A stretch of 64,000 bases of DNA from Candidatus Nealsonbacteria bacterium (GTDB lineage Bacteria; Patescibacteriota; Minisyncoccia; Minisyncoccales; RBG-13-42-11), in assembly GCA_026396115.1 (NCBI GenBank), contig JAPLXL010000001.1:2761-66760 (forward strand). Reading direction: 5' to 3'. The stretch's first letter is position 1, and each line of letters opens with the position of its first letter. The notes under the pieces were generated by a model, which searched no databases, was not told where the DNA came from, and saw only the letters and a program-made list of their open reading frames with translations. Shown here piece by piece: positions 5,008-39,565 of this stretch. The position numbers and the translations under genes were made by a program.

Positions 5008-5066
5008 GGCGAAGAGAACTCTGTTCTCTTCTTCACCTTCGTCCCGCTATCGCGGGACTCGGTAAT
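5008..5066 (+). repeat. Family-1 palindromic mini-element, short form
   Basis: GGCGAAGAGAAC-TCT-GTTCTCTTC TTCACCTTCG TCCCGC-TAT-CGCGGGA CTCGGTAAT. Confidence 0.85.
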
Positions 5067-5089
5067 TAATTTTTAATCTCGACTTTTTG

Positions 5090-11555: not shown

Positions 11556-12830
11556 TTAGTCCTGAGTTGTTTTAGTCGTCTTTTTCTTTTTGATTTCTTT
11601 TTCAACAGGCGAAGAGGACTTCGTCCTCTTCTTCACCTTCGCTTCCATAGATGGAAGCTCGGTTTCTAATTTTTCTCCCTCCTCTTCTTTTTTATCTTTT
11701 TCGTCCTCTCTTGGAGATCTGATGTCTATTTTCCAACCGGTTAGTTTTGCCGCCAATCTTACATTCTGACCATCTTTGCCAATAGCCAAAGACAATTGAT
11801 CTTCGGAAATAATAACTTGGGCTTTGTTTTTGGGCATTATTTTTACCTCTAAGGACTTGGCAGGCGACAAGGAATTGGCAATATACTTTTCTGGCTCCGG
11901 AGAATATGCGACAATATCAATTTTTTCTCCTGCCAACTCATTAATTACAGCCATAACCCTCGTTCCTTTTTGGCCAATCATGCTGCCAATAGGGTCAACT
12001 CCTTCAATGTCGGAGCATACCGCAATTTTAGACCTGGAACCTGGCTCTCTGGCGATTGACTTTATCTGAACTTGACCTGAAGAAACTTCCGGCACCTCCA
12101 ACTCAAAAAGTTTTGAAATTAATTTGGGGTAAGCCCGAGATAAAATTATGGCCGGCCCTCTTGGCGTTTCTTCAACTTTTAAAAGATAAACCTTGAGCCG
12201 TTGGCCCGGCCGATAAAATTCTCCCGGCACCTGTTCTTCTTTTGGCAAGACGCCAAGGGTTTTGCCAATATCTAAAAAAACATTTCTTCCTTCAATTCTT
12301 TGAACAATTCCGGAAATTATTTCTCCTTCCTTGGCCTTGTATTCATCCAAAATACTTTCTTTTTCTGCTTCTCTAATTCTTTGTAAAATAACTTGTTTTG
12401 CGGTCTGGGCAGCAATCCGACCATAATCTATTTTTGTTTCCAAGGGAATTTCTAATTCTTGAGCAACCTTAATCTTTGGGTTTATTTTTTTTGCTTCTTT
12501 GAGCATAATATGCTTTTCAGGATTAAAACGAACTTTTTTACCGGCCGAAACTTCGCCGGCCACGGGCTTTTCTCCCACCTTCGTTTCCATTTGTGAAAGC
12601 TCGGTTTCAGAATAAATCATGTCTTTATCGATAATTAATTTTACTTGCCAAAACTTAACATCGCCTGATTCCGGATCAAGTTTAGCTTTGATTATCTGTC
12701 CTTTTTTTCCGTAATCTTTTTTATAGGCAGCGGCAATCGCCATTTCAATGGTTCCCAAAACCTTTTCCGTAGAAATACCTTTTTCTTCGGCAATCTGAGC
12801 AATGGCTGACATGAAGTTTTTTATATCCAT
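11556..12830 (-). CDS. nusA: Transcription termination/antitermination factor NusA; C-terminal tail partly encoded by a repeat element
   Basis: The N-terminal NusA signature, S1 domain and two KH-like regions are recognisable. The last ~40 aa overlap family-1 element 11608-11665. Confidence 0.92.
   Translation of the reverse strand: MDIKNFMSAIAQIAEEKGISTEKVLGTIEMAIAAAYKKDYGKKGQIIKAKLDPESGDVKFWQVKLIIDKDMIYSETELSQMETKVGEKPVAGEVSAGKKVRFNPEKHIMLKEAKKINPKIKVAQELEIPLETKIDYGRIAAQTAKQVILQRIREAEKESILDEYKAKEGEIISGIVQRIEGRNVFLDIGKTLGVLPKEEQVPGEFYRPGQRLKVYLLKVEETPRGPAIILSRAYPKLISKLFELEVPEVSSGQVQIKSIAREPGSRSKIAVCSDIEGVDPIGSMIGQKGTRVMAVINELAGEKIDIVAYSPEPEKYIANSLSPAKSLEVKIMPKNKAQVIISEDQLSLAIGKDGQNVRLAAKLTGWKIDIRSPREDEKDKKEEEGEKLETELPSMEAKVKKRTKSSSPVEKEIKKKKTTKTTQD
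11608..11665 (+). repeat. Family-1 mini-element inside the 3' end of nusA
   Basis: GGCGAAGAGGAC-TTC-GTCCTCTTC TTCACCTTCG CTTCCAT-AGA-TGGAAG CTCGGTTTC. Confidence 0.85.
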
Positions 12831-16445: not shown

Positions 16446-16524
16446 CTGGAAATTGGGGCGGGGTGAAAATCCTGGCGGGGGCACCAAAAACAATTTTTAA
16501 TTTTCAATTATTAATTTTAAAATA

Positions 16525-16622
16525 GTCGAAGAGATAAATCTCTTCTTCACCTACCCGAGTCGCAACGAAGGGTAGAGAAGAAGGAATCTTCTTTGACTTC
16601 GCTTCCTTCGGAAGCTCGATAT
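16525..16622 (+). repeat. Family-1 mini-element, long form, ending at the rpsO start codon
   Basis: GTCGAAGAGAT-AA-ATCTCTTC ... CTTTGACTTCG CTTCC-TTC-GGAAG CTCGATAT, then ATG. Confidence 0.85.
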
Positions 16623-16889
16623 ATGATTACGCCAGAAGAAAAAGAAAAAATAATCAAAAGCTATAAACTGCACGATTTAGATACGGGTTCTCCGGAAGTT
16701 CAGGTTGCTCTGTTGTCAGAAGAAATCAAGCAATTGCTTTTACATTTGAAAAAGCATGCTAAAGATTTTCATTCAAAAAGAGGGTTATTAAAAATGGTTT
16801 CAAAAAGAAGGACTTTGTTAAATTATTTAAAGCAGGAAGACACAAAAAGATATAATAGTATAATTAAAAAAATAGGGTTGAAGAAATAA
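16623..16889 (+). CDS. rpsO: 30S ribosomal protein S15
   Basis: [38 protein letters not shown]...; 88 aa. The 10 extra N-terminal codons in the track ORF lie in the repeat element. Confidence 0.93.
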
Positions 16890-17409: not shown

Positions 17410-17469
17410 CTCAATGAATTTTCAATTCATTTCAATCTTCGATGTTCAATAAATTTTTAATTTATTTCA
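17410..17469 (+). repeat. Family-2 double-hairpin element abutting the pnp start codon
   Basis: AATGAATT-TTC-AATTCATT ... AATAAATT-TTT-AATTTATT TCA, then ATG. Confidence 0.75.
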
Positions 17470-19602
17470 ATGAATAAAGAAATTTTCAAACTAAATATTG
17501 GCGGAAAAGAGTTAAAGGTTGAAGTCAGAAATTTAGCCGAACAAGCTTCAGGCGATGTTTTAGTTCAGTATGGAGAAACTATGGTTTTGGCGACAGCAGT
17601 TATGTCAAATTACGAAAGAGAAGGAATAGATTTTTTTCCTTTAACGGTTGATTACGAAGAAAGATATTATGCCGCCGGCAAAATTCTGGGCTCAAGATAT
17701 ATCAGAAGAGAGAGCCGGCCTTCAGACGAGGCCATTTTAACTTCAAGATTTATTGACAGAGCAATAAGACCAAGATTTCCCAAGCACTTAAAAAAAGAGG
17801 TTCAGGTAGTAGTTACTTGCCTTTCCTGGGACAAGGAAAACGATCCCGACATTATTGGTTTGCTTGCTGCTTCCCTGGCCTTATCTATTTCTAATATTCC
17901 TTGGTCAGGCCCGATAGCAGTTTTAAGGGTTGGCAAAAACGAAAAAGATTTTATTCTTAATCCTATTTATCAAGAAAGAGAAAAAAATGATCTGGATTTG
18001 GCAATAGCGGGGGTGAAATCTCATGAAATTTTAATCAATATGATTGAAATGGAGGGAAGCGAAGTAACAGAAGATATGATTTTAAAAGCAGTAGATTTTG
18101 CTAAACCTACTCTTGAAAAACTGATTGATTTTCAAAAAGAAATTGTTAAAAAAGTTGGCAAGGAAAAAGATAAAATAGAAACACCTGCAAAGGATTTGGA
18201 ACTGGAAAAAGAAATTAAAGATTTTCTTGGCTCAAGATTAGAAAAAGCTCTTTTCCGAAAAGACAAAGTTAGCCGAATGGATGAAGTTAATGCCTTGAAA
18301 GAAGAATTGATTTATTATATTCAAGGAAAATATCCTGTTGGTAGGGGCAAAGAGGATAAATCCTCTTCTTTACCCTTAGCTGCGGCTCGGGTTTTTGAAG
18401 AAGAAATAGAAAAATTAGTTCATGAAAATGTTATTAAATTTGAAAAGAGGCCTGACAATAGAAAAATTGATGAAATAAGAAATATCCAATGTGAAGTGGG
18501 ACTATTACCCAGAACCCATGGCTCCGGTCTTTTTATTAGAGGACAAACTAAAGCTCTCTCCATTTTAACCTTGGGGGCACCGGGGGATGTAAGGTTGCTT
18601 GAGGGAATGGAAGCAACCTACAAAAAAAGATTTATGCACCACTATAATTTCCCTCCTTATTCTGTCGGAGAAGTAAAACCAATGAGGGGGCCGGGCAGAA
18701 GAGAAATAGGACATGGAATGCTGGCAGAAAAAGCTTTAATGTCATTGGTCCCCAGTTTTGATGATTTTCCTTATACCATTAGAATAGTCACCGAAATTCT
18801 CTCGTCTAACGGTTCAACCTCGATGGCCTCTGTTTCAAGTAGTTCTCTGGCCTTAATGGATGCCGGAGTGCCAATAAAAAGACCGGCTGCCGGAATTGCT
18901 TTAGGATTAATGCAGGACAATAAAGGAGATTACAAAATTTTAACCGACATTCAGGGACCGGAAGATCATCACGGCGACATGGATTTCAAAATCGCCGGGA
19001 CAGAAAAAGGAATTACCGCCATTCAAATGGATGTTAAAAATGATGGAATTGACAAAGAAATTTTAGAAAAAACCTTGTCTCAAGGAAAAAAAGCAAGGCT
19101 TCAAATTTTAAACGAAATGGCAAAAGTAATTTCAAAACCAAGGCCAGAACTATCGTCCCATGCTCCCAGAATATTGATATTACAAATAAATCCTATTAAA
19201 ATAAGAGAAGTGATTGGTCCTGGCGGAAAAGTAATCAATGAAATTATTGATGAGTGTGGAGCTTCAATAGACATTGAGGACTCGGGCAGAATTTTTGTAA
19301 CAGCCGAAAGGGAAGAGGCAGCAAAAAAAGCCGTTGAAAGGATAAAGAACATTACTCGCGAAGTTAAGGTAAACGAAGTTTTTCAGGGAAAAGTTAAAAG
19401 AATTTTGGATTTTGGAGCTTTTGTTGAAATTTTGCCCGGACAAGAAGGATTGGTTCATATTTCTCAATTGGCTCCTTATCACGTCAATAAAGTGGAAGAT
19501 ATTGTTAAGACGGGGGACATTATCCCGGTTAAAGTAATTTCAATTGACGAACAGGGAAGAATAAATCTGTCTCTCAAAGAGGCAAAAAGTAAGCCCCGTT
19601 AG
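17470..19602 (+). CDS. pnp: Polyribonucleotide nucleotidyltransferase (PNPase)
   Basis: Two RNase PH-like halves, then KH and S1 at the C-terminus. It carries an in-frame family-1 repeat insertion at 18346-18393. Confidence 0.95.
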   Translation: MNKEIFKLNIGGKELKVEVRNLAEQASGDVLVQYGETMVLATAVMSNYEREGIDFFPLTVDYEERYYAAGKILGSRYIRRESRPSDEAILTSRFIDRAIRPRFPKHLKKEVQVVVTCLSWDKENDPDIIGLLAASLALSISNIPWSGPIAVLRVGKNEKDFILNPIYQEREKNDLDLAIAGVKSHEILINMIEMEGSEVTEDMILKAVDFAKPTLEKLIDFQKEIVKKVGKEKDKIETPAKDLELEKEIKDFLGSRLEKALFRKDKVSRMDEVNALKEELIYYIQGKYPVGRGKEDKSSSLPLAAARVFEEEIEKLVHENVIKFEKRPDNRKIDEIRNIQCEVGLLPRTHGSGLFIRGQTKALSILTLGAPGDVRLLEGMEATYKKRFMHHYNFPPYSVGEVKPMRGPGRREIGHGMLAEKALMSLVPSFDDFPYTIRIVTEILSSNGSTSMASVSSSSLALMDAGVPIKRPAAGIALGLMQDNKGDYKILTDIQGPEDHHGDMDFKIAGTEKGITAIQMDVKNDGIDKEILEKTLSQGKKARLQILNEMAKVISKPRPELSSHAPRILILQINPIKIREVIGPGGKVINEIIDECGASIDIEDSGRIFVTAEREEAAKKAVERIKNITREVKVNEVFQGKVKRILDFGAFVEILPGQEGLVHISQLAPYHVNKVEDIVKTGDIIPVKVISIDEQGRINLSLKEAKSKPR
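18346..18393 (+). repeat. Family-1 mini-element, in-frame inside pnp
   Basis: GGCAAAGAGGAT-AAA-TCCTCTTC TTTACCCTTAGCTGCGGCTCGGGTT; 48 nt encoding GKEDKSSSLPLAAARV. Confidence 0.75.
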
Positions 19603-19637
19603 AAATGATATTTCTAAATGGGTAAATAATAATTCAT

Positions 19638-19739
19638 AAACCGAGCCCCGAGTAGTGGGGCGAAGTCGAAGAAGATTCCTTCTTCTCCACCTCAGCTGAA
19701 GCTTCGGTAGGTGAAGAAGAGGACGAAATCCTCTTCGCC
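19638..19739 (-). repeat. Family-1 mini-element, long form, inverted orientation
   Basis: Positions 19661-19721 are 61/61 identical to 59671-59731. It ends 15 nt before the ATG at 19754. Confidence 0.9.
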
Positions 19740-19753
19740 AAACATAATTAAGA

Positions 19754-22700
19754 ATGGAAGAAGAAAATAAAAAACTAGAATTTTTGAAAAAAGAGAAAGT
19801 CAGAACAATGCAAAAAGATATTGCCAGCTTGGAAGAATTGGGGAGCCAAAGAGAAAGTGAGGAGAGAGAAGAGGTCGCGGTTGAAAAAACAGAAGAAAAA
19901 ATAGAGGCTGTGGCCAAAGAGGAAGAAAAAGAAAGACAAGAAAAACTTGAGAAACTTTTGGCAGAAAAAAGAGCGGCAGCACAGGCAGAAATAGAAAGAG
20001 CAAAAGAAGAAGAGGAAAGGAAGAAAATTGCTGAGGAAGAAATGAAAAAAAGAGTCGCCGAAGAAGAAGAAAGAAGAAGAAAAGAAGAAAAGCTCTTGGC
20101 AGAAAGAACCGAGGAGGAAAAAATAGCTGAAATTGATAAAGAAATTGAAAATATCGGCCTGGAAAAAAAGAGAGTAAACGAAGAAAAGGAGCGATTTTTA
20201 GCTGGGATTAAAAATTTTGAAATTCAATTAGAACCGATTTTGAAGGAAGAGGAGATTATTGAAAATAAAATTTTGGAAATTGAAGAATTAGAAAAAACAG
20301 CTCCTTTTGAAAAAAGAAGTCAAATTGAAAAGAAAAGATGGGAAACGGATGCCAAAAGACGAGATATTGAAAAAACAAAATGGTCAATCCAGGAAGAAAT
20401 AGAAAAAACGGAAGAAAAAATTAAAACGATTGAATTAAAATACCAGGAAGTTTTAAAAAAGGAAGAAAGATTCAAAGCAGAAAAGGAAAAAATTTTCCGA
20501 AAAAGACAAGAAAAAGAATCGACTCGGGAAAAATCTCTCTTGAAAAACGAAATTTTTCAGTTAATCGACGAGAAAAAAATAATAGAAAACAAAGAAAATG
20601 AACTTTTGGCAAAGAAAAACAGAATTGAAACTGAGTTAAAAGAACTTTTAAAAGAAGAACAAATTACCGAAGAGGTGATTAGAGATATTGAAAAAAGAGA
20701 AAAAGAAATTTCGGATCCAAAAGAGCAAAGAAAAGTTGAAAAAGACAGGTGGAAAGTTGAAGATGACAGAAAAACATTGGAAGGAAAAAGATGGGAATTA
20801 GAACAAGAAAAAAAAGATTTTTCCACTGAATTAAAAAAGATAGAAGAAGAATATCAGAAAATTTTGGAAAAAGAAACCCCTTTAAGAGAAAGATTAAAAG
20901 AAATTAATCGTTTATTAAGAATATCTCCGGGAGAGGAATCTCTAGAAAAAGAGGAGGAAAAAGAGGAAATGATAACGGAAGATAAAAAAAAACTTTTTGA
21001 AAAACTTGAAGAAGAAAAAACAACAATAGGATTAGAAAAAAGAGCAGTAACACAAGTCCCCACACCAAAATTTGATAGTGAGGAGCAAATAGAAATAGAA
21101 AGGGCAAAAGAGAAAGAGGAGAGGAAGAAAATTGCTGAAGAAGAAATGAGAAAAAGAATCGCCGAAGAAGAAGAAAGAAGAAGAAAAGAGAAACTTTTGG
21201 CAGAAAAAAGAAGATTAGAGGAAAATCAAATAAAAATAACCGAAGAAAATCCTCCTTTTGAAAATTCAGAAGTCAAAGAGGATAAATCCTCTTCTTCAGC
21301 CACCGAGCTTTCGCACAGCGAAAGTGAAGGTGAAAAAGAGGCTCGCCTCTTTGACTTCGCTGCGACTCGGACAATAAAAGAAGAAACATCGGAAACTTTA
21401 ATTCCCAAATTACCCAAAAAACCTTCTCCTATTCAAAAAATCTTAATTAGGGCTTTAATATTTGCCATTCTTTTATCTGTAATTGGATTTCTTTACTGGT
21501 TTTTTACGGTGAAAAAAGTTGAACAGCAGAAAATAATTCTGCCGCCGGAAGAAAAAAAAGAGGAAGAAAGGAACAAATACCCGGAAATTATAATTCCTGC
21601 TTCCTTAATTTCAGTAGACACTACAGAAACTCTGGAAATTATGAATTCTTCAGAAATTCCAGGGTTGCTCCCTCAACTTCTGGAAAAAACCTTTGAAACA
21701 GGAGAATACATCAGAATTTTATTTAAGAATATAAACGAAAATAAGGTTGTCGGTCTAAAAGAGTTTTTTGAAGCTTTTGAAGTTAAAACTCCCGAAAAGC
21801 TTTTAGAAAAACTGAACAACGATTTCACTTTATTCATTTTTTCCAGTGGAAATAAAAACCATTTAGGTTTTGTAACTAAAATTGAAAACAAAGAAAACCT
21901 TCTAAATTCATTGTTCTCCTGGGAGGCAACAATGGAAAAAGATACAGAAAAACTCTTTGAAGTTTTGGGCAAAGAAAAGCCGGCTCTGTCTTCAAGTTTT
22001 AAAACCAGTTTCCACCAAGAAATAAGTTTTAGATTTTTAACCATTTCTCAAGAAGATTTTGGAATTTGTTATGCCTGGTTTGATGATTATTTTGTTTTTA
22101 CCTCTTCCTTTGAAAACATAAAAAAGACAATTGATTTAATAAAGGCCAGCACATTGGAAAATCAGGTTGGTCAGATGTTTATTATTGGGTTTGAAGGCAA
22201 AACTGTTACTCCTCAATTAGAGGAGTTTTTTCATAAATATAAACCTGGAGGTATCCTTTTGCTGTCAAAAAACATTGAAAGCGCAGAACAATTAAAAAAA
22301 CTTACTAAAGACCTCCAAAATCTTTCTTTAAGAGAAACCGGTCTTCCTCTTTTTATTACTATTGACCAAGAGGGCGAAATTATCTCCAGAGTGGATTTTC
22401 TCCAAGAAAAAACCCTTCAGTCAGAAATTGAAGACACAGATGAAGCTTATCAGATTGGCTTGACAAGGGGCCAAGAATTAAAAGAATTAGGAATTAATCT
22501 TAATCTGGCTCCGCTGTTAGATGTTACCGAGGAAACAGATTTTTTATTCAATCGCTCTTTTCAAAAAAATGCAGCCAGAACCGGAAATCTGGCAAAGTCT
22601 TTAATTGAAGGACAAAAAACAGCAAACATTTTAACTGCTGTCAAACACTTCCCGGGATATGGCGGAATTTCTTTTAACCCGGAGGAAACTTTAGCTAAAA

Positions 22701-23101
22701 CAGAAACATTGCCAGAAATATTTCAATTCAAAAAAGCAATTGAGGCTAACCCTGAATTTATCATGACCGCCAACATGGTTTATAAAAATCTTGACCCAAA
22801 TCTACTCTTTACATTCTCTCCGACAGCTATCCAATTTTTAAAAGACAATTTGGGCTCTGAAATTATAATCATTAGCGACGATTTAGCCCAAAAGTATCTC
22901 TTGGCAAATTTTTCTTTAAAAGATATAATGATTAAACCAGTTCAGGCTGGTGTAAATCTTTTAATTTTTTCCGGCTGGGAAATAAGCGTTTCTGAAGGGT
23001 TAGATATTTTTTTTGATACTTTTAAAAAAGGAGGGGTTTCTCAATCTAAAATTAAAGAATCGCTATCAAAAATTATTAAAATAAAAGAGAGATTAATGTA
23101 A
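19754..23101 (+). CDS. Large membrane protein: Glu/Lys-rich coiled-coil N-terminal half, TM segment, C-terminal glycoside hydrolase family 3 (NagZ-like) domain
   Basis: The C-terminus has GQMFIIGFEGKTV...GGILLLSKNI...KHFPGYGG. There is a TM segment at ILIRALIFAILLSVIGFLYWFF and an internal duplication ERAKE.EERKKIAEEEM.KR.AEEEERRRKE. Confidence 0.75.
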   Translation: MEEENKKLEFLKKEKVRTMQKDIASLEELGSQRESEEREEVAVEKTEEKIEAVAKEEEKERQEKLEKLLAEKRAAAQAEIERAKEEEERKKIAEEEMKKRVAEEEERRRKEEKLLAERTEEEKIAEIDKEIENIGLEKKRVNEEKERFLAGIKNFEIQLEPILKEEEIIENKILEIEELEKTAPFEKRSQIEKKRWETDAKRRDIEKTKWSIQEEIEKTEEKIKTIELKYQEVLKKEERFKAEKEKIFRKRQEKESTREKSLLKNEIFQLIDEKKIIENKENELLAKKNRIETELKELLKEEQITEEVIRDIEKREKEISDPKEQRKVEKDRWKVEDDRKTLEGKRWELEQEKKDFSTELKKIEEEYQKILEKETPLRERLKEINRLLRISPGEESLEKEEEKEEMITEDKKKLFEKLEEEKTTIGLEKRAVTQVPTPKFDSEEQIEIERAKEKEERKKIAEEEMRKRIAEEEERRRKEKLLAEKRRLEENQIKITEENPPFENSEVKEDKSSSSATELSHSESEGEKEARLFDFAATRTIKEETSETLIPKLPKKPSPIQKILIRALIFAILLSVIGFLYWFFTVKKVEQQKIILPPEEKKEEERNKYPEIIIPASLISVDTTETLEIMNSSEIPGLLPQLLEKTFETGEYIRILFKNINENKVVGLKEFFEAFEVKTPEKLLEKLNNDFTLFIFSSGNKNHLGFVTKIENKENLLNSLFSWEATMEKDTEKLFEVLGKEKPALSSSFKTSFHQEISFRFLTISQEDFGICYAWFDDYFVFTSSFENIKKTIDLIKASTLENQVGQMFIIGFEGKTVTPQLEEFFHKYKPGGILLLSKNIESAEQLKKLTKDLQNLSLRETGLPLFITIDQEGEIISRVDFLQEKTLQSEIEDTDEAYQIGLTRGQELKELGINLNLAPLLDVTEETDFLFNRSFQKNAARTGNLAKSLIEGQKTANILTAVKHFPGYGGISFNPEETLAKTETLPEIFQFKKAIEANPEFIMTANMVYKNLDPNLLFTFSPTAIQFLKDNLGSEIIIISDDLAQKYLLANFSLKDIMIKPVQAGVNLLIFSGWEISVSEGLDIFFDTFKKGGVSQSKIKESLSKIIKIKERLM
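21271..21372 (+). repeat. Family-1 mini-element, in-frame inside the 1115-aa gene
   Basis: GTCAAAGAGGAT-AAA-TCCTCTTC ... GCTTTCGC-ACA-GCGAAAG ... CTTTGACTTCGCTGCGACTCGG; 102 nt encoding VKEDKSSSSATELSHSESEGEKEARLFDFAATRT. Confidence 0.75.
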
Positions 23102-23104
23102 AAA

Positions 23105-23215
23105 AACAATATTCAATGAATCTTCGATTGTCGAGCTTCCGAAGGAAGCGAAGATGAAGAAGAGATTTATCTCTTCGACTCATCTCACTTTTCAATAAAT
23201 TTTCAATTTATTTCA
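23105..23215 (+). repeat. Family-2 element carrying a nested 51-nt family-1 insertion (23130-23180)
   Basis: With 23130-23180 removed, the sequence aligns with the reverse complement of 39508-39565 (ttcaatgaatcttcgatt|catctcac.tttcaataaattttcaatttatttc). Confidence 0.85.
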
Positions 23216-23605
23216 ATGGATAAAAACTTGATAAATCAATTAAAAGAAAAATTAGAGAAAGATAAAAAAAATATTGAAAAACAGCTTGAAAAATTTGCCA
23301 CTAAAGATGAAAAACTCAAGGACGACTGGGATACTCGTTTTCCCCGTTTTGATGGCAGAGAAACAGGGTCAGCTGCCCTGGAACAGGCAGCTGACGAAGT
23401 AGAAGAATACAGCACTCTTTTACCTATTGAATATAGCTTGGAATTATGGTTAAAAAACATTAATTTAGCTTTGGAAAAAATCAAAATTGGCAAATACGGA
23501 ATTTGCGAAAAATGCCAAAAAAGAATCAAAGAAGAAAGACTCAAAATTTATCCTGTTGCCCAATATTGCTTAAATTGCAAAAAGCCCAAGAAAACTCAAG
23601 CTTAA
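23216..23605 (+). CDS. DksA/TraR-family C4 zinc-finger protein
   Basis: CEKCQKRIKEERLKIYPVAQYCLNC (CxxC-N17-CxxC) at the C-terminus. Confidence 0.8.
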   Translation: MDKNLINQLKEKLEKDKKNIEKQLEKFATKDEKLKDDWDTRFPRFDGRETGSAALEQAADEVEEYSTLLPIEYSLELWLKNINLALEKIKIGKYGICEKCQKRIKEERLKIYPVAQYCLNCKKPKKTQA

Positions 23606-23811: not shown

Positions 23812-23935
23812 TCAAAGAGGACTTCGTCCTCTTCTCCACCTTCGCTTCCATAAATGGAAGCTCGGTAATAGAATAGAAAGTCGAAGAAAATAAAATTTTT
23901 TTCTCCATCTTCGTTCCGTAAACGAAACTCGATAA
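23812..23935 (+). repeat. Two tandem family-1 units ending at the start codon of 23936
   Basis: Unit 1 is CAAAGAGGAC-TTC-GTCCTCTTC TCCACCTTCG CTTCCAT-AAA-TGGAAG CTCGGTAAT. Unit 2 is GTCGAAGAAAA..TTTTTCTCC ATCTTCG TTCCG-TAAA-CGAAA CTCGATAA, then ATG. Confidence 0.85.
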
Positions 23936-25993
23936 ATGATAGAAACAATTAAAGAAAAACTTAAATCAGCTATCTCTTTTTTTAAAACACGGGAGTTTTC
24001 TGAGCGGTCAGCTCTTTTGACCACCATCTTGGCTTTTGTTCTAATTTTAGTGGTGTTTTTCTTAATTATAAGGGTCGTTTTACCCAGAACCAAAGTTGAA
24101 ATCAATATTTCGGGACCGGAAACAGCAAAAGTCGGAGAAGAAATAACTTATACCGTAACTTGTAAGAACACAGGGAATGTTGTTTTAAAAAATCCGGAAT
24201 TGGTTTTTAATTATCCGTCTTTTTCTCTGCCGGAAAAAAGTTTAATCGAGACAATAATATTAGGAGAATCTCTTTACCCCAACGAAGAGAAAGTGCTTAA
24301 CTTTAAAGCGCAGCTTTTTGGAACGGAAGGCGAAAGAAGAGAAGCCAAAACTTGGTTGAATTATTCTAAGGGAAAGCAACCAGCAATAAAAATGTCAAAA
24401 GTTGCCAATTTTTCTAGTCTTATTTCCGAAGTACCAATAGATTTTATTTTGGATATCCCTAAAAAAATTCCAATATCTCCCAAAACGGAAACCGAGTTCA
24501 TTTTTAGGCTAAGATATTTTTCCTTAATTGACCACACTATTTCCAATTTAAAACTATCTATAAATTTTCCTTTTGATTTTACTTTTAAAGAATCAATGCC
24601 TCCAAAGACGGAGGAGCAAAAATGGGAAATTCCAAAATTAGAATATCTTGGCGGAAAAGAAGCGGAAATAACAGGATCTTTTCCCCAGGGACAAGAGATC
24701 GGAAAAGAATTAGATTTCAGCGCTCAATTATTCATTAATCTTAACGGCCAAGACGTTTTATTAAAAGAAGTTTCGGCCCGCTCTGTCACCTATGAACCCA
24801 ATTTCTTGTTTTCTCAAAAAATTAATAATCAAGAAAAATACTTTCCCTATTCCGGAGAAAGACTCTATTACGAAATTTATTTTAAAAATATCCAAGATAA
24901 GCCTTTGAGAGATCTGGTTTTAACTACTGTTTTGGAAGGAAATCTTTACGATCTGTCTACCATTGAAACTCCTTTGGGAGAATTTCCCAAAGGAGGAAAC
25001 TCTATCTCTTGGAATGGAGAAAAAATTCCCCAGCTTAGATATTTAACGCCTGGCGAAGAGGGCAAGGTAGAATTTTGGGTCCAATTGAAAGAAGATTTCA
25101 AACCAAAAGATTTAACTGAAACCAACGCCTTAATAAAAAATAGGGTAATCTTGGCCGGTTTTGAAGCAGAATTTAGAAACCGAGTTAATTCTCAAATAAA
25201 AATCTCTCAGGAAGGTTATTTTAAAGACAAATATGGATTTTTTGAAAACCCCGGCCAACATCCTCCTCAAGTAAACGAAACTACTAATTATACAATTGTT
25301 TGGAAACTTGAAAATTATTATAATTGGATAGAAAACGCCATAATCAAAGCCACCCTTCCTTCGGGAGTTTATTTTAGAAGCGTTAAACCCACCCATGGAG
25401 AAATGAAGGTTATAACGGATCCTCTTCAAATGAAAGGTTCTTATCCGGAAATTCCAACAACCTTCAGGTTTGAAAAACCATTATACGAAGGACTAAGCAG
25501 CGAAGAGGTTCGGTATCTCCAAATTATACTTAAAAGAGAGGTTCCTTATTGGTATCCGGCAAATGTGCCAACTACCGGTTATTTCGGAAGAACAACTCTT
25601 GCTGCTGTAAAAGGCTTTCAAGAAAAATACAGAAAAGAAATATTAGAGTCTCAAAATCTCGAAAATCCCACCGGCTATGTTGACGAAGTGACACGGCTAA
25701 AACTTAATGAATTATTAATTAAAGGGATGCCTTTGGGTCCTACCGAAGTAATTTGGGAAATCGAAAATATCAATCCCGGAGTGGGAGTTTTAGAAGATCC
25801 CTGGATTGCTGCTTTCCAAATCGCTTTTGTTCCTGATTTAATTCAGAGAGGGAAAATCGCGACGCTAATTAACGAGGTTATATTTTCAGCAAAAGACCAA
25901 TGGACGGAAATGATCGTTTCTTCAAGCGACGAACCAATAGATACTACCCTGCCCGATGATCTTACCGTAGAAAAAGTGGGAAAAATTCGCTAA
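23936..25993 (+). CDS. Membrane-anchored protein with repeat-fold domains and a peptidoglycan-binding (PG_binding_1-like) module
   Basis: N-terminal TM segment. GEEITYTVTCKNTGNVVLKNPELVF resembles a DUF11-type repeat. LSSEEVRYLQIILKRE...GYFGRTTLAAVKGFQEKY is PG-binding-like. Confidence 0.65.
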   Translation: MIETIKEKLKSAISFFKTREFSERSALLTTILAFVLILVVFFLIIRVVLPRTKVEINISGPETAKVGEEITYTVTCKNTGNVVLKNPELVFNYPSFSLPEKSLIETIILGESLYPNEEKVLNFKAQLFGTEGERREAKTWLNYSKGKQPAIKMSKVANFSSLISEVPIDFILDIPKKIPISPKTETEFIFRLRYFSLIDHTISNLKLSINFPFDFTFKESMPPKTEEQKWEIPKLEYLGGKEAEITGSFPQGQEIGKELDFSAQLFINLNGQDVLLKEVSARSVTYEPNFLFSQKINNQEKYFPYSGERLYYEIYFKNIQDKPLRDLVLTTVLEGNLYDLSTIETPLGEFPKGGNSISWNGEKIPQLRYLTPGEEGKVEFWVQLKEDFKPKDLTETNALIKNRVILAGFEAEFRNRVNSQIKISQEGYFKDKYGFFENPGQHPPQVNETTNYTIVWKLENYYNWIENAIIKATLPSGVYFRSVKPTHGEMKVITDPLQMKGSYPEIPTTFRFEKPLYEGLSSEEVRYLQIILKREVPYWYPANVPTTGYFGRTTLAAVKGFQEKYRKEILESQNLENPTGYVDEVTRLKLNELLIKGMPLGPTEVIWEIENINPGVGVLEDPWIAAFQIAFVPDLIQRGKIATLINEVIFSAKDQWTEMIVSSSDEPIDTTLPDDLTVEKVGKIR

Positions 25994-26069: not shown

Positions 26070-26207
26070 TAGAATAAAATATGCCTTCAAAAGTTTTTTC
26101 AGCCGCTCTCACGGGCTTAAACGCTCAAATTGTTGAAGTAGAAGTAGATGCTTCTTACGGCCTTCCATCTTTTTTTAAGTTATGGACAACATCCCAACAA
26201 TTATCTC
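26070..26207 (+). pseudogene. Duplicated 5' fragment of the comM/yifB-like gene (first 31 codons, then out-of-context tail)
   Basis: 26070-26162 matches 27881-27973 with 1 mismatch in 93 nt. The reading frame terminates at 26207. Confidence 0.85.
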
Positions 26208-27731: not shown

Positions 27732-27880
27732 AAATTATAGAAAACTTCTTTAATCTTTAAAAGTTTCAAAAGTTTCTCCTTTAACACGAGAAAGAATAAT
27801 AAGAATTAGTAATAATTAAATAAAAATTGCCCAGCGAAGGCTTTTTGTTTTATGACAGCCTTTTGATATACTAAAGTAAT

Positions 27881-29419
27881 ATGCCGTCAAAAGTTTTTTC
27901 AGCCGCTCTCACGGGCTTAAACGCTCAAATTGTTGAAGTAGAAGTAGATGCTTCTTACGGCCTTCCATCTTTTAATATCGTTGGCTTGCCGGACAAGGCC
28001 ATCCAGGAATCAAAAGAGAGAGTGGCTTCAGCCATAAAAAGCTCGGGCTTTCAATCTCCCCACCAACAACCTATCAGGACTTTGGTTTCTCTGGCTCCGG
28101 CAGATTTAAAAAAAGAAGGTTCTCTATATGACCTGCCAATTTCTTTGGGTTTTTTATTTGCCACAAAACAAATAAAATTCGACTTCCAAAGTCGCATTTT
28201 TGTTGGGGAATTGGCTTTAGACGGAAATTTAAGGCCAATAAAAGGGGCTCTTTCTTTTGCTTTAGCGGCAAAAGAAAATGGTTTTAAAGAAATAATTTTG
28301 CCTTGGTCAAATTCTGCCGAAGCAGCCTTAATAAAAGAAATAAAAACAATCGGGGTCAAAAACTTAAAAGAAACAATCGATTATTTGTTGGGCAAAAAAG
28401 AAATATCCCAAACTAAAATAAATCCCAAAGGATTTCTTGACAAAGAAGATTATCCAATAGACCTTGGCTGGATAAAAGGGCAAGAATATGCCAAAAGAGC
28501 TTTGGAAATCTCAGCTGCCGGCTCCCACCATCTCTTAATGACTGGCCCTCCGGGAGCTGGCAAGTCTATTTTAGCCAAATCTCTCTCTTCGATTTTACCT
28601 CCTCTTTCTTTTGAAGAAGCTTTGGAAGTAAGCAAAATTTATAGCGTGGTTGGTCTTCTACCAGAAGAAAAACCTTTAATTAGTCAAAGGCCTTTCCGCT
28701 CTCCTCATCATACTGCCTCAGAAGTTGCTTTAATCGGCGGCGGCAATCCGCCGAAGCCGGGTGAAATAACTTTGGCCCACAGAGGAGTTTTATTTTTAGA
28801 TGAATTCCCGGAATTCCACCGCGATGCTTTAGAATCCTTACGCCAGCCGATTGAGGAAGGGGAAATTACAATTTTAAGATCAAAGCATTATCTTAAATTT
28901 CCTAGCCGCTTTACGCTCGTGGCTGCTGCCAACCCCTGTCCTTGCGGCTATTTTGGCGACCCGGAAAAAGAATGCAAATGCTATCCTTCACAGATTCAAA
29001 ACTATAGAAGAAAGCTTTCAGGACCCCTGATGGACAGAATTGATATTTTTGTTACCGTGCCTCAATTAAAATACGATAAACTGACTGCTCCGGACGAAGA
29101 AAATTCCAGTAAAGTTATAAGAGAAAAAGTGGAAAAAGCAAGAGAAATTCAAAGAGAAAGGTTTACCGAGCACATAAATCGTTATGTGCTCGGGTTAACC
29201 AATTCTGAAATGGATATCCCAAAAATAAAAAAATACTGCCAAATTGACAGTAAATCAGAAGGACTTTTGAGAAAATATGTTGATTCTGGCAAACTATCTG
29301 CCAGAGGATACCACCGCGTCTTAAAAGTGGGCCGGACAATCGCTGACTTGGATAATTCGGAGAACATCCAATACAATCATCTCTCAGAGGCCTTAATGTA
29401 TAGAATCAGGGAAGATTAA
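27881..29419 (+). CDS. YifB/ComM-family Mg-chelatase-like AAA+ ATPase
   Basis: N-terminal Lon-like domain MPSKVFSAALTGLNAQIVEVEVD..., Walker A GPPGAGKS, GVLFLDEFPEF, and a C-terminal CPCGY Zn motif. Confidence 0.9.
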   Translation: MPSKVFSAALTGLNAQIVEVEVDASYGLPSFNIVGLPDKAIQESKERVASAIKSSGFQSPHQQPIRTLVSLAPADLKKEGSLYDLPISLGFLFATKQIKFDFQSRIFVGELALDGNLRPIKGALSFALAAKENGFKEIILPWSNSAEAALIKEIKTIGVKNLKETIDYLLGKKEISQTKINPKGFLDKEDYPIDLGWIKGQEYAKRALEISAAGSHHLLMTGPPGAGKSILAKSLSSILPPLSFEEALEVSKIYSVVGLLPEEKPLISQRPFRSPHHTASEVALIGGGNPPKPGEITLAHRGVLFLDEFPEFHRDALESLRQPIEEGEITILRSKHYLKFPSRFTLVAAANPCPCGYFGDPEKECKCYPSQIQNYRRKLSGPLMDRIDIFVTVPQLKYDKLTAPDEENSSKVIREKVEKAREIQRERFTEHINRYVLGLTNSEMDIPKIKKYCQIDSKSEGLLRKYVDSGKLSARGYHRVLKVGRTIADLDNSENIQYNHLSEALMYRIRED

Positions 29420-31488: not shown

Positions 31489-31533
31489 ATAAAACAGAGT
31501 TTTGATATGTCAGACAAAGCCTGTTATAATAGA

Positions 31534-31630
31534 GTCGAAGAGATAAATCTCTTCTTCAACTACCGAAGCTTTAGCTGAGGTGGAGAAGAAGAAATCTTCT
31601 TCGACTTCGCTTCCTTCGGAAGCTCGATAA
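31534..31630 (+). repeat. Family-1 mini-element, long form, 16 nt upstream of the ATG at 31647
   Basis: Its core is the reverse complement of the 61-nt block shared by 19661-19721 and 59671-59731 (a few mismatches). It ends CTTCC-TTC-GGAAG CTCGATAA. Confidence 0.85.
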
Positions 31631-31646
31631 TTGAAAATTAATTATT

Positions 31647-32693: not shown

Positions 32694-32697
32694 TTAA

Positions 32698-32798
32698 GGC
32701 GAAGAGGACTTCGTCCGTTGAGTCAAAGACGAGACGAAAGAAGAAAAACTTTTCTTCGCACTCTTTTCCACCTTCGTCCCGTAAACGGGACTCGCTAT
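32698..32798 (+). repeat. Family-1 mini-element, long form, ending at the ATG at 32799
   Basis: It is near-identical to the reverse complement of 59721-59794 and ends TCCCG-TAAA-CGGGA CTCGCTAT, then ATG. Confidence 0.85.
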
Positions 32799-34595
32799 AT
32801 GAAATTTCCTTTTTTAAAAAAGAAAAAAACTATCGAGATGCCGGAAAAAATTTTTGAGGCATCAACAATAGAAGCAAAAGACATTATTGCTCCTTCTTCG
32901 ATTGAAATAAAGCCCGACCATATAAAATTGGGTGAAAGGTTTACCAAATCATTTTTTATTTTTTCTTATCCAAGATATTTAAGCACTGCCTGGCTGTCAC
33001 CGGTAATCAATCTTGATCAGCCGATGGACATTAGCTTTCATGCCCACCCGATCGATACAGGACAGGTTTTAAAACAATTAAGAAAGAAAGTGACAGAAGT
33101 TCAGGCTGAAATTATGGAAAAAGAAGAAAAAGGGCTAATAAGAGATCCTGTCTTAGAAACTGCTTATCAGGATTTAGAAAACTTAAGAGACAGTCTGCAA
33201 ACTGCCCAAGAGAAAATGTTTAAAATTGGCCTTTATTTAACTGTCTATGGAAAAACTCTCGAAGAAATAAAAGAAGTAGAAATAACTTTAAGATCAATTC
33301 TGGAATCAAGGTTAATTTATATTAAACCTACCCTTTACCAGCAAAAAGAAGGATTTAATTCAACCTCGCCTTATGGATTAGACCAAATTCAAGTCCACAC
33401 CTCAATGAACACAGAGCCCCTGTCCTCTATCTTTCCTTTTACCTCTTTTGATTTGAGTTCCAACGATGGAATTTTATACGGAATAAACATGCATAATAAT
33501 TCTTTGATTTTGTTTGACAGATTTAGTTTAGAAAATGCCAATGAGGTTCTTTTTGGAAAAGCCGGCTCTGGAAAAAGCTATTGCATTAAATTAGAGATTT
33601 TAAGATCTCTGATGTTAGGAGTCGACGTAATTGTTTTAGATCCAGAAAATGAGTACAAAACATTATCTGATGCTGTTGGTGGTTCCTTCTTTAATATCTC
33701 TTTGGCCAGTCCAAACCATATTAATCCTTTTGATTTGCCGATTCCCAGAGAAGATGAAGAACCGGAAGATGTTTTAAGGTCGAATATTATTAACTTAGTT
33801 GGTTTATTAAGAATTATGTTGGGCGGCTTGTCTCCGGAGGAAGACGGAATTGTTGACAGGGCTCTGACTGAAACTTATGCTGCCAAAGATATCACCCCGG
33901 AAACAGACCCTGCCACCTGGAAAGACAAAATTCCTTTAATGTCTGATTTTGAACAAGTTCTTGAAGGAATGGAAGGGGCAGAATCCTTAGTTAGGAGAGT
34001 GAGAAAATTCACCAAAGGAACTTTTGCCCAATTTTTCAATCAGCCAACCAATATTTCTATGGAAAAACCCTTTGTTGCTTTTGGGATAAGAGATATGGAA
34101 GACGAATTAAGACCAATGGCCATGTTTATAATTATAAGATACATCTGGAATAAGGTCAGATCGGAGATGAAAAAAAGAATTTTGGTTGTTGATGAGGCCT
34201 GGTGGCTAATGCGGACGGAAGATAGCGCTTCTTTTCTTTTTGGAATGTGTAAAAGAGCAAGAAAATACTGGCTGGGAGTGACAACTATAACCCAGGACGT
34301 TAACGATTTTATGAAATCAGAATACGGTAAACCGATTATTACCAATTCTTCTCTTCAATTTCTAATGAAACAATCTCCGGCCACCATTGAGATCATTCAA
34401 AAAACTTTTAACTTGACAGACGAAGAAAAATATTTGTTATTAGAGTGCGAAGTGGGTGAAGGAATATTTTTTGCCGGGCAAAAACGCGTGGCCATAAAAG
34501 TGATGGCTTCTTATGCCGAAGACCAGTTTATCACCACCTCTCCGGAAGAAATAGTAAAAATAAAAAGGGCCAAACGAGAATTAGCCGGAGAATAA
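32799..34595 (+). CDS. VirB4/TraC-like T4SS ATPase (DUF87-type P-loop)
   Basis: Walker A GKAGSGKSY and Walker B ILVVDEAWWL. The start is moved to MKFPFLKKKK because the 27 upstream codons in the track ORF lie in the repeat element. Confidence 0.8.
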   Translation: MKFPFLKKKKTIEMPEKIFEASTIEAKDIIAPSSIEIKPDHIKLGERFTKSFFIFSYPRYLSTAWLSPVINLDQPMDISFHAHPIDTGQVLKQLRKKVTEVQAEIMEKEEKGLIRDPVLETAYQDLENLRDSLQTAQEKMFKIGLYLTVYGKTLEEIKEVEITLRSILESRLIYIKPTLYQQKEGFNSTSPYGLDQIQVHTSMNTEPLSSIFPFTSFDLSSNDGILYGINMHNNSLILFDRFSLENANEVLFGKAGSGKSYCIKLEILRSLMLGVDVIVLDPENEYKTLSDAVGGSFFNISLASPNHINPFDLPIPREDEEPEDVLRSNIINLVGLLRIMLGGLSPEEDGIVDRALTETYAAKDITPETDPATWKDKIPLMSDFEQVLEGMEGAESLVRRVRKFTKGTFAQFFNQPTNISMEKPFVAFGIRDMEDELRPMAMFIIIRYIWNKVRSEMKKRILVVDEAWWLMRTEDSASFLFGMCKRARKYWLGVTTITQDVNDFMKSEYGKPIITNSSLQFLMKQSPATIEIIQKTFNLTDEEKYLLLECEVGEGIFFAGQKRVAIKVMASYAEDQFITTSPEEIVKIKRAKRELAGE

Positions 34596-36103: not shown

Positions 36104-36156
36104 GTCGAATAGATAAATCTCTTCTTCATCTTCGCTTCCTTCGGAAGCTCGATAAT
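36104..36156 (+). repeat. Family-1 mini-element between rnpA and yidD
   Basis: GTCGAATAGAT-AA-ATCTCTTC TTCATCTTCG CTTCC-TTC-GGAAG CTCGATAAT. Confidence 0.85.
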
Positions 36157-36163
36157 TGAAAAT

Positions 36164-36655: not shown

Positions 36656-36833
36656 AAATAAATACAATTAAACTTTACTGAGCACATAATTTGTTATGTG
36701 CTTCAGTTTATTATTTACATTAGCAAAAAATATAATTACCGTCAATTTTCACAGTTTTTCCTCAACTTTTCAACAACCCAAGTCCTTTTCTCCTTCATTT
36801 TGATTTTTTTTGACATGTGATATAATACTCAAT

Positions 36834-38204
36834 ATGAACATTTCTAACTCCATCGTGAACAAAGATGAACTATGGCAAGCGATTCTTGCTCAAATCCAAC
36901 TAGACATCTCTCAAGCTAACTTTGCCACCTGGTTTAAAGATACCAATATAGCCGTTTATAAAGATGGTCAGGTAATTGTTTCCACTCCAAACTCTTTTGC
37001 TAAGGAATGGCTGGAAAACAAATACGGAAAAACCATTTTCAAGATTTTTTATAATTTAGATAAAAGGATTAAAGAAGTTAAATACACGGTTGGAAAATCG
37101 GAATTAAAAACAATTAAAAAACCGACAATTTCGTTTCCCAGTGCCGGACAACTTGAGTTTGAAGAATTTAAAATTGATAAAGAAACAAATCTTAATCCTC
37201 GTTACACTTTTGAAAATTTTGTAGTAGGCCCCTTTAATGAATTGGCTCACGCTGCCGCCTGGGCTATCTCAAAAAAGCCGGGGCTGGTTTATAATCCTCT
37301 TTTTATTTATGGAGGAGTAGGCCTGGGCAAAACACATCTTTTACAATCTGTCGGCAATGCAGTAATGAAAAACTTTTCTCAAAAAAAAATAAGATATATA
37401 CCATCTGAAAAGTTTACTACCGGACTGGTTTCTTCTATAAAAAACCAAAGTATCGAAGATTTTAAAATAAAATATCGAGCCATTGATGTTTTAATTTTAG
37501 ACGATGTTCAATTCTTGACCGGAAAAGAAAAAACCCAAGAAGAGTTTTTTCATATTTTCAATGCTTTGTATGAAAAAAATAAACAAATAATTATTTCTTC
37601 GGACAGGCCCCCAAAAGCCATTCCGGCCTTAGCTGAAAGACTGAGGTCACGCTTTGAAGGAGGAATGATCGGGGATATAAGTTATCCTGATTACGAAACA
37701 AGAATTGCTATCCTTAAAACTAAAAGTCAGGAAAGAGGAGTAAATTTTTCCGATGAAGTGTTGGATTATATTGCTGTAAATATTCAAAAAAATATAAGAG
37801 AGCTTGAAGGGGCTTTAAACAGATTAATTGCTTATCAAAAAATAAACAATCAACCGCCTAACTTAGAAATAGCTAAATCTTTATTAAAAACGCTATTCCT
37901 TTCTCCAAATAAGGTAGCTAATTATAAAAAAATAATTCAGGCAGTGACCGAGTTTTATGATTTAAAAGAAAAAGACTTACTTTCTTCGTCAAGAAAAAAA
38001 GAGATAGTCGGGCCTCGCCAGGTAGCAATGTTTTTGTTGAGAGAATTATTAAAAAGTTCTTATCCTTTTATAGGCAGGAAGCTTGGAGGAAAAGACCACA
38101 CCACGGCTATTCATGCTTGTGGAAAAATTGTTAAAGAAATAGAAAATAACGAAAATCTTAATAATGAAATTGACTTGATAAAACAGCGCATCTTTAGTGC
38201 ATAA
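36834..38204 (+). CDS. dnaA: Chromosomal replication initiator DnaA
   Basis: Walker A GGVGLGKTHL, ILDDVQF, and a C-terminal DNA-binding helix region (GGKDHTTAIHA). I prefer the ATG at 36834, 7 nt after TATAAT (36821-36826), over the TTG at 36810. Confidence 0.93.
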   Translation: MNISNSIVNKDELWQAILAQIQLDISQANFATWFKDTNIAVYKDGQVIVSTPNSFAKEWLENKYGKTIFKIFYNLDKRIKEVKYTVGKSELKTIKKPTISFPSAGQLEFEEFKIDKETNLNPRYTFENFVVGPFNELAHAAAWAISKKPGLVYNPLFIYGGVGLGKTHLLQSVGNAVMKNFSQKKIRYIPSEKFTTGLVSSIKNQSIEDFKIKYRAIDVLILDDVQFLTGKEKTQEEFFHIFNALYEKNKQIIISSDRPPKAIPALAERLRSRFEGGMIGDISYPDYETRIAILKTKSQERGVNFSDEVLDYIAVNIQKNIRELEGALNRLIAYQKINNQPPNLEIAKSLLKTLFLSPNKVANYKKIIQAVTEFYDLKEKDLLSSSRKKEIVGPRQVAMFLLRELLKSSYPFIGRKLGGKDHTTAIHACGKIVKEIENNENLNNEIDLIKQRIFSA

Positions 38205-39507: not shown

Positions 39508-39565
39508 ACCTAGAAATAAATTGAAAATTTATTGAAAGGTGAGATGAATCGAAGATTCATTGAAC
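39508..39565 (-). repeat. Family-2 double-hairpin element, empty-site version
   Basis: The minus strand reads GGTTCAATGAATC-TTC-GATTCATCTCACCTTTC AATAAATT-TTC-AATTTATT TCTAGG. Confidence 0.8.

Follow-up and report, generated by a model that had tools for sequence, protein, structure and literature searches.

Paired-Hairpin Repeats between Genes and, in Frame, inside Genes of a Candidatus Nealsonbacteria Genome

The stretch of DNA considered here, which we call the window, covers the 64 kb visible to us of a genome of Candidatus Nealsonbacteria (Patescibacteria, or candidate phyla radiation, CPR), an ultra-small bacterium of groundwater. The polynucleotide phosphorylase (PNPase) that it encodes is identical to P0001, a protein annotated as Candidatus Nealsonbacteria in a protein search, and the reference genomes nearest to the window are metagenome-assembled genomes of CPR bacteria, a group whose genomes are regarded as small and streamlined. 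Three genes concern us most: nusA (424 aa; 11556–12830, minus strand), pnp (PNPase, 710 aa; 17470–19602, plus strand), and a gene for an 1115-aa protein with a coiled-coil N-terminal region, a transmembrane (TM) helix, and a GH3 domain (19754–23101, plus strand). All three carry, in frame, copies of a short hairpin repeat that is otherwise dispersed between genes.

The simple unit of this family is 57 nt long and holds two different hairpins. Hairpin A, which opens with GCGAAGAG and closes with CTCTTC, has the general form (G/T)C(G/A)AAGAG-stem-loop-stem-CTCTTC; a linker, TTCACC or sometimes GAC, joins it to hairpin B, TTCG-stem-loop-stem-CTCG(G/A)T, whose frame is often followed by AA/ATGA. 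Stems measure 5–10 bp across units. The left end of a unit reads GGCGAAGAG… and the right end …GCTCGGTT, and the two are not reverse complements of each other. Composite copies contain an inverted unit nested in the linker.

The family was mapped through repeat searches and direct reading, followed by a profile, built from six intergenic units, that was run over the window; it recovers about 15 loci, with E values down to 1e-20, and the family occupies about 2% of the 64 kb. A search with an exact core pattern was dropped for this purpose as too strict, since it finds only two genic copies. About 11 of the 15 loci are intergenic, and four lie inside open reading frames (ORFs), in frame: in pnp, in the GH3-domain gene, in the tail of nusA, and in its N-terminal loop. 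Irrespective of the direction of neighboring genes, 12 loci run forward on the plus strand and three on the minus strand. (The dnaA and dnaN genes lie at 36810–39507; the orientation numbers are too small to relate to replication direction.)

Copies within pnp, nusA, and the GH3-Domain Gene

The copy in pnp (18346–18393, plus strand) is a 48-nt unit with a short hairpin B. It encodes GKEDKSSSLPLAAARV (residues 293–308), within the all-alpha domain that separates the two RNase PH cores. A preliminary description of this DNA had given exactly these coordinates and this peptide, and had viewed the copy as 16 residues added to the protein. Presence and frame stand, but simple addition does not: 48 nt in the window replace 24 unrelated nucleotides (GK-IKYARDF) of the empty orthologs, a net gain of 8 codons, and the 16 residues stand in place of about nine (GK-xxYxKDF). 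The replacement holds even against L090, which has the upstream haplotype in common and yet is empty. In an AlphaFold2 model of the window PNPase (mean pLDDT 76), residues 291–299 have pLDDT values below 50 and lie between helices 266–287 and 300–324, which suggests that GKEDKSSSL forms an inter-helix loop and that PLAAARV starts the next helix. Pfam does not detect the alpha domain in many occupied alleles.

Relatives carry further copies in the same gene. P0005/L090 and P0009/L089 have a complete unit of 57 nt (MGKEDKSSFSSSFPRSGNS) at a second site, about 20 residues upstream of the one just described. At the 3′ end of pnp in L089 (3965–3975) and L090 (5749–5760), a unit is inserted in such a way that the TAA of the hairpin A loop is the pnp stop codon, after …KEAKR. 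The very end of pnp in the window (19589–19621) has a 33-nt hairpin-like indel, GTAAGCCCCGTTAGAAATGATATTTCTAAATGG, with a C-terminus and stop codon different from those of L081 and L084; it is not obviously of the same family as the hairpin units.

The nusA tail contains a simple unit of 57 nt (11608–11664), forward on the plus strand and therefore read in reverse by its host, that encodes (E)TELPSMEAKVKKRTKSSSP; the tail peptide ETELPSMEAKVKKRTKSSSP corresponds to 11607–11666 of the minus strand (residues 389–408). This copy, which the preliminary description had also named, is borne out by an empty site. The block is shared by the window and L081; in L084 and L085, AAATTAAAA is directly followed by CTTAAAAAAG, and the difference between conserved flanks is exactly 57 nt, or 19 codons (alleles of 6 and 63 nt), which bounds the insertion at about 11608–11664. 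It sits past KH2, in a low-complexity tail rich in Glu and Lys.

A fourth genic piece had been overlooked. In the N-terminal variable loop of NusA, a hairpin B module (12576–12608, plus strand; profile E = 1e-5) reads ETELSQMETKV and takes the place of EELEKMKALPFEALAKE of close relatives, a replacement rather than a clean insertion. Near-identical strains have three alleles here, L081 carrying a different, composite insert of 75 nt. The whole N-terminal segment, with some 30 residues more than in T. maritima and E. coli, was considered as an insertion and rejected, since all CPR orthologs have a variable loop of about 30 aa; within that loop only the hairpin B module is derived from the family. 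A selfish insert of another type occurs in the same gene in L088 (1101–3308), whose NusA of 735 aa has an intein with a LAGLIDADG endonuclease domain in the KH region.

The copy in the 1115-aa gene (21272–21373, plus strand) is a 102-nt composite of hairpin A, inverted hairpin B, hairpin A, and short hairpin B. It contributes 34 aa (residues 507–540) just before the TM helix, in a disordered linker rich in Glu and Lys, and has no counterpart in orthologs; the linker around it is so variable that an exact empty site cannot be drawn. Its presence, length, and frame had been described correctly, with coordinates (21271–21372) that are off by one base relative to the codons.

The three copies of the preliminary description are, as it stated, in frame and free of stop codons, and they lie at permissive positions: the low-confidence inter-helix loop of the PNPase model, the tail after KH2 of NusA, and, in the GH3-domain protein, the hypervariable linker that precedes the TM helix. 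The palindromic nature of hairpin A explains why K-S-S-S results from either orientation, as AAA TCC TCT TCT in the forward and AAG TCC TCT TCG in the reverse direction.

In-frame copies extend to relatives. Those in related loci include RsmA/KsgA (+20 aa, L091) and UPF0102 (+15 aa, L090). A metagenome scan for a 16-nt junction motif matched at least 120 contigs, which lack taxon labels and most of which match by chance; about 26 of the 120 contigs listed carry full units after profile filtering. In-frame hosts among the matches listed are LeuRS, MetRS, TsaD, MurB, a Mur ligase, Hsp20, and uL18, the last with about 32 residues more than uL18 of B. subtilis. Over all the DNA compared, 15 of 68 element loci lie in a stop-free read-through frame that extends for 40 codons or more to either side; one of the 15 frames is spurious and antisense. 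A copy in the M23 peptidase gene of L081 was not accepted as intragenic; the window ortholog has it upstream of the start codon, and the L081 case is probably a gene-calling artifact.

Three reading frames are seen repeatedly, GKEDKSSS… in the forward direction and …TELPxMEAKVKKRTKSSSP and …SEGxEGEEExxVLFA in reverse. Genic length differences are all multiples of three (48, 57, 60, 45, 75, 96, 102, and 108 nt), whereas intergenic ones (44/45, 59, 64, 103/104, and 110 nt) are not, which points to selection on the translated sequence and argues against splicing or bypassing. The copies could instead be removed from the mRNA or skipped by the ribosome, in the manner of the mobile bypass elements of yeast mitochondria and of T4 gene 60, and stable hairpins of 48–102 nt inside essential genes would suit such a process. 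We regard it as very improbable. Every intragenic copy, in more than 12 genes, is in frame and stop-free, a property that neither splicing nor bypassing needs, and intergenic copies often carry stops; the same three frames recur; and AAARV of the pnp copy is predicted to continue into the following helix in the AlphaFold2 model. The frames suggest that the intragenic copies are translated, and peptides predicted to span insert junctions are YPVGRGKEDKSSSLPLAAARVFEEEIEK and LETELPSMEAKVKK.

Turnover among Near-Identical Strains

The contigs that encode PNPases 85–94% identical to that of the window (700–737 aa) were collected, and the flanks of each window copy were compared; strains in the comparison of filled and empty sites are 94–98% identical to the window. 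At this distance empty sites are found, in agreement with the proposal of the preliminary description that a dispersed palindromic element has been inserted in frame in a lineage-specific manner. The pnp site is empty in L082, L084, and L001 (24 nt, …GGAAAAATTAAATATGCCAGAGATTTT), has 48 nt in the window, and contains two tandem 48-nt units (96 nt) in L081; among the proteins, the copy is missing from P0003, P0004, P0006, and P0007 and doubled in P0002. In the GH3-domain gene, the window and L082 share the 102-nt form and L081 has a rearranged one of 108 nt, again multiples of three. Upstream of rpsO the window has 104 nt, L081 103 nt, L082 a simple unit of 64 nt, and L084 none. Upstream of a gene for a 685-aa protein, L081 has no element and L082 a different, 102-nt form. 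L001, the closest reference genome, is free of the family over 22 kb and has the ancestral sequence at every comparable site. The preliminary description would have been refuted by repeat-free orthologs with homologous residues at the same positions; the outcome of this check favors its proposal.

The spacer between pnp and the GH3-domain gene illustrates how a composite is built. It is empty in L081 (a spacer of 23 nt) and L001 (6 nt), and it holds a simple 57-nt unit in L082 and L084. In the window it has 110 nt (19632–19741, minus strand), namely the 57-nt unit with an inverted unit of 44/45 nt nested in its linker between TTCAC and CTTCG. Exact junctions are available at two sites, the nusA tail and this spacer; on the coding strand they read TTCATA/AAACAT and TTAGA/TGTTG (slash at the junction), and they show neither terminal inverted repeats nor a target duplication beyond a 2-nt ambiguity of the boundary. 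The same alleles occur in independent assemblies (L082 equals L083, and L084 equals L085); because these agree and because units are shorter than one sequencing read, assembly artifacts are unlikely.

Among 120 PNPase orthologs the pnp site is occupied in 35, with at least 14 changes of state on a tree built with the site masked. Occupied alleles share the flanking residues IQKK[YH]S[TA]…, which empty alleles do not have, and differences between the nearest occupied and empty pairs cluster in a patch of 20–25 codons (24 of 31 for P0060 versus P0105). Short-patch recombination of occupied alleles between lineages fits this pattern at least as well as does repeated new insertion.

These comparisons also bear on a more trivial reading, that segments rich in Lys, Glu, and Ser resemble the repeats through AT-rich codon usage and that variable loops evolved in place. 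The nusA N-terminal loop, the nusA tail, and the GH3 linker are indeed of low complexity and variable in all CPR orthologs, and distant PNPases align at the region of the pnp copy with gaps of just 1–3 aa. Such a coincidence is nonetheless scarcely credible to us, contradicted as it already is by the filled and empty alleles and by the exact 57-nt block between conserved flanks in nusA. The pnp and GH3 copies have an exact core of 23 nt in common, in the same reading frame; the palindromic core AAGAGGAnnnnTCCTCTT occurs twice, and 0.05 matches are expected from shuffles. The profile of intergenic units recovers the genic copies (the pnp copy, taken by itself, with a weak E = 0.07), copies inside genes keep their hairpins and conserved flanking motifs, and the same peptides turn up in the unrelated proteins NusA, LeuRS, TsaD, and uL18.

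Structure, Relatives, and Proposed Movement of the Family

Units fold far more stably than shuffled controls, with z scores of −2.7 to −5.3 (−5.1 for the nusA tail, −2.7 for pnp, and −3.9 for the GH3-domain gene). Stem covariation was measured directly, as arm complementarity in cis versus in trans; an alignment of units made with MAFFT was rejected for formal pair counting, as short-stem variants fall out of register. The arms of hairpin A (21 distinct stems) are complementary at 0.97 in cis and 0.46 in trans, and those of hairpin B (17 distinct stems) at 0.88 and 0.37. In pnp of L086/L087, GATGAAGC-TAAA-GCTTCATC (DEAKASS) replaces GAAGAGGA-TAAA-TCCTCTTC (EEDKSSS), three compensatory double changes. 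Across six diverged occupied genes, identical residues are encoded by identical codons at a frequency of 0.88 in the pnp element and 0.51 elsewhere in the gene, the element ranking first among 697 windows. This reflects either a constraint on structure or sequence at the DNA or RNA level, or uniformity due to recent spread or gene conversion.

Observations of this kind could mean that the hairpins are selected RNA or DNA structures, such as transcript stabilizers, terminators, translation-initiation structures, or protein-binding sites, that are retained by selection even within coding sequence, spread mainly by recombination, and are not selfish DNA. Conservation of pnp at the nucleotide level goes beyond what the protein requires, compensatory changes occur within coding sequence and stems covary throughout the family, the end of many forward units coincides exactly with a start codon, the ATG lying inside the conserved CTCG[GA]TnnATGA, and orientation is biased (12 to 3). 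We consider selected structures unlikely all the same. Presence, absence, and rearrangement at the same sites in near-identical strains indicate that no individual copy is required, and L001, the closest reference relative, has none in its 22 kb; copies take both orientations relative to transcription, in genes and outside them; an Rfam scan of the window (Rfam has no family for the Rickettsia palindromic elements) matched no family to the repeats and returned only four tRNAs and a LOOT RNA; and the high conservation could equally come from recent spread or from homogenization by gene conversion.

No element of this sort has been described in Patescibacteria/CPR in the full-text literature that we searched, as the preliminary description had supposed; a paper on a closed Nealsonbacteria genome mentions only transposase repeats of >400 bp. 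The same description had drawn a parallel to the Rickettsia palindromic elements (RPEs; Ogata et al. 2000, as summarized in PMC10969869 and PMC3733652), which are reported as repeats of about 100–150 bp inserted in frame in unrelated housekeeping genes. The parallel applies to behavior, but not to size, architecture, or end tags. Both families are dispersed palindromic repeats of small, host-dependent genomes, both occur between genes and in frame in housekeeping genes, which they do not destroy, at sites compatible with protein structure, and neither has a known dedicated transposase. Ours differs in having a CPR host and a 57-nt unit of two different hairpins framed by GCGAAGAG, TTCACC-TTCG, and CTCGGT, and the CGTC tag reported at the RPE end (PMC3733652) is not conserved at its ends, (G/T)C(G/A)AAGAG and CTCG(G/A)T.

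REP, BIME, and REPIN sequences of Proteobacteria, which are GTAG-tagged and mobilized by RAYTs, offer a second comparison. Stems of 5–13 bp, conserved unpaired flanks, a mostly extragenic location with occasional intragenic units, and clusters of alternating orientation characterize REP palindromes and are found in our units too, as are mosaic arrays, the lack of inverted termini and duplications, and an abundance that differs strongly by strain. REP superfamilies are defined by a GTAG or CGTC tag (PMC3733652), however, and an alignment of 23 units has neither tag at either end of either hairpin; moreover, a fixed pair of different hairpins takes the place of a single REP, no RAYT was found in the window, and the in-frame intragenic share (about 14 of 68 loci) is much higher. 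MITEs such as ERIC and RU of enterobacteria (PMC2759123), QMITE of Coxiella (PMC5896051), Correia, and Nezha are likewise small and non-autonomous and can carry open frames and give rise to in-frame fusions and to start or stop codons for neighbors, but the features that define a MITE, terminal inverted repeats and target-site duplications, are both missing from the junctions examined here. The BOX elements of Streptococcus pneumoniae also form stable stem-loops from modules that are combined, repeated, and rearranged; their modules are 45–59 nt each, frequent in-frame insertion into essential genes is not known for them, and sequence and host differ. Finally, PATEs derived from IS200/IS605 have a hairpin near each end, neither inverted termini nor duplication, and an insertion that could couple to single-stranded DNA; in our units, hairpin A starts 3 nt inside the left end and hairpin B lies about 6 nt inside the right. 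PATEs insert 3′ of a fixed tetra- or pentanucleotide; the two exact junctions available here, too few to define a target, gave no conserved tetranucleotide, and no TnpA/Y1 gene was seen in the window or in the gene tables of the related loci. Stems vary between copies, whereas recognition by such transposases usually keeps them constant. The anatomy, with a hairpin near each end, neither inverted termini nor duplication, units nested in opposite orientation, and tandem copies, most closely resembles that of REP/BIME and IS200/IS605-derived elements. Our best reading is that these repeats form a new non-autonomous family of CPR bacteria, similar to REP/BIME and RPEs, whose copies are translated where this can be tolerated.

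It seems probable that the segments are copies of a short, non-autonomous repeat family, defined by structure, with active gain and loss, nesting, duplication, and exchange of copies in Candidatus Nealsonbacteria and related CPR bacteria. Stem sequences vary freely but stay complementary. Units would enter AT-rich spacers, the linkers of resident units in opposite orientation (giving composites), and occasionally genes, where survivors would be those that keep the frame, have no stops, and land in loops, linkers, or tails; there they would be translated, in one of the three recurring frames, into hydrophilic peptides rich in Ser, Lys, Glu, and Ala. An established occupied allele could then move between lineages by short-patch homologous recombination. 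In short, we envisage a repeat that is moved in trans and afterward shuffled by recombination. What the data show is membership in one family, polymorphism for presence and absence, exact junctions, covarying hairpins, conservation at the nucleotide level, permissive sites, and a wide set of host genes; translation and the mode of movement are inferred. The absence of terminal inverted repeats and target duplications, together with a hairpin near each end, leads us to guess at a trans-acting enzyme of the IS200/IS605 or RAYT type that recognizes single-stranded hairpins; it is the guess we prefer, and a doubtful one. Microhomology-assisted gene conversion might account for the replacement-type events, which point to recombination of that kind; the empty pnp sequence GACAAAGAAAAT resembles the 5′ end of a unit, GGCAAAGAGGAT. 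The only recombinase in the window, a large serine recombinase (44864–46543), was rejected as the mobilizer; its island is without repeats.

Several observations weigh against this account: (i) none of the 59 ORFs of the window matched a Y1/RAYT or DDE transposase or an insertion sequence when scanned against Pfam, and the gene tables of related loci (about 150 kb) flag no mobilizing enzyme; (ii) the events in pnp and in the nusA N-terminal loop replace host sequence, an outcome not expected of simple transposition, whether cut-and-paste or peel-and-paste; (iii) many of the 14 changes in PNPase may represent recombination of one old allele, since occupied alleles share flanking residues across lineages; (iv) template-switch correction of quasi-palindromes could generate the covariation without selection or recognition by an enzyme; (v) the 16-mer of the metagenome scan also matches unrelated contigs, among which taxon labels are absent; and (vi) translation is deduced solely from constraints on frame and stop codons.

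A further view gives the units more than a passive part. These CPR bacteria depend on pili and are presumed competent for DNA uptake, and the units might act as signals that bias DNA exchange, for instance in uptake or recombination, occupied alleles, including those in essential genes, being spread between lineages by short-patch replacement. The scatter of the pnp allele (at least 14 changes), the patch of 20–25 codons, and the tightest nucleotide conservation in the gene make the idea tenable; we hold it to be quite improbable. A related possibility is that a new hairpin-specific enzyme, one unrelated to RAYTs, moves the units.

Under the reading that we favor, a repeat family resides inside essential information-processing genes, those for PNPase and NusA in the window and for LeuRS, MetRS, TsaD, and uL18 in relatives. 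Selfish DNA in protein-coding genes, best known from Rickettsia, is thereby extended to a distant and largely uncultivated branch of bacteria, which suggests that the phenomenon may recur among reduced, host-dependent genomes. There are consequences for annotation, in that units supply start and stop codons and break Pfam domains. The units are also natural strain markers, and they constitute a natural experiment in which protein loops tolerate about 16–34 extra residues. They raise the question of which enzyme moves a unit with neither terminal inverted repeats nor target duplications.

Other Copies and Neighboring Features

Simple intergenic units lie at 5009–5071 (E = 2.5e-16), 36104–36160 (E = 8e-16), and 63861–63923 (E = 2e-20), all on the plus strand, and at 23123–23181 on the minus strand, directly after the stop codon of the GH3-domain gene. 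Composite copies occur at 31532–31635 (plus strand), upstream of a PrgI-like gene (31647), and at 59641–59800 (minus strand; 160 nt), upstream of a T2SSE ATPase gene (start 59625, minus strand).

Other copies, all on the plus strand, adjoin start codons. A composite recovered by the profile search (16524–16627) ends at that of rpsO (ATG 16629), the second of two tandem units (23814–23939) ends at that of the gene for the 685-aa, wall-associated protein (23936), and a copy with an expanded hairpin A (32697–32802) ends at the likely true start (ATG 32796) of a TraG-like ATPase gene. Forward units have a conserved 3′ end, CTCG[GA]TnnATGA, that includes or adjoins the start codon of the downstream gene at rpsO (16620–16631) and the 685-aa gene (23933–23938), and does so in relatives at L088 8404, L090 10106, L091 2227, L145 6324, and L165 1159, a pilin-like gene being among the hosts. 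Units may thus supply start codons or form the immediate 5′ leader. We cite only clear cases, a count made with a loose regular expression having been set aside for its false positives. A promoter reading of TTCACC … GATAAT was dropped, the spacing of 20–23 nt being unfit for a sigma-70 promoter.

Of the other repeats in the window, a second AT-rich dispersed motif, TTCAATnAATTTTCAATTnATTTCAAT, at 17410–17477, 23172–23223, and 39504–39555, often adjoins hairpin units, and strains differ in whether they have a 35-nt piece of it. At the window edge (3–134), a 9-nt unit, AGAGTGTTG, is repeated in tandem about 12 times. Two pairs of direct repeats of 130–170 nt with 76–77% identity, 4829–4994/9621–9786 and 5297–5430/10246–10379, lie about 4.8–4.9 kb apart and indicate a diverged duplication of a gene cluster for repeat-rich, surface-type proteins of unknown function.

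Two larger features deserve mention. An apparent integrated element at about 43–57 kb contains the LOOT RNA (RF03000, 84.6 bits; 49000–49113, plus strand) along with the serine recombinase, a helix-turn-helix (HTH) protein, a DnaA-like ATPase, and an Eco57I-like methyltransferase (53001–54767); the hairpin family is absent from 36.2 to 59.6 kb. The second feature is a direct repeat of 96 nt with 99% identity (26078–26173 and 27878–27973), which duplicates the 5′ end of a ComM/Mg-chelatase-like gene (27881–29419). Between its two copies lies an insert of 1.8 kb, and of the two ORFs in it one is pilin-like and has an N-methylation motif; this insert, absent from L081 and present in L082, looks like a small island integrated at comM.

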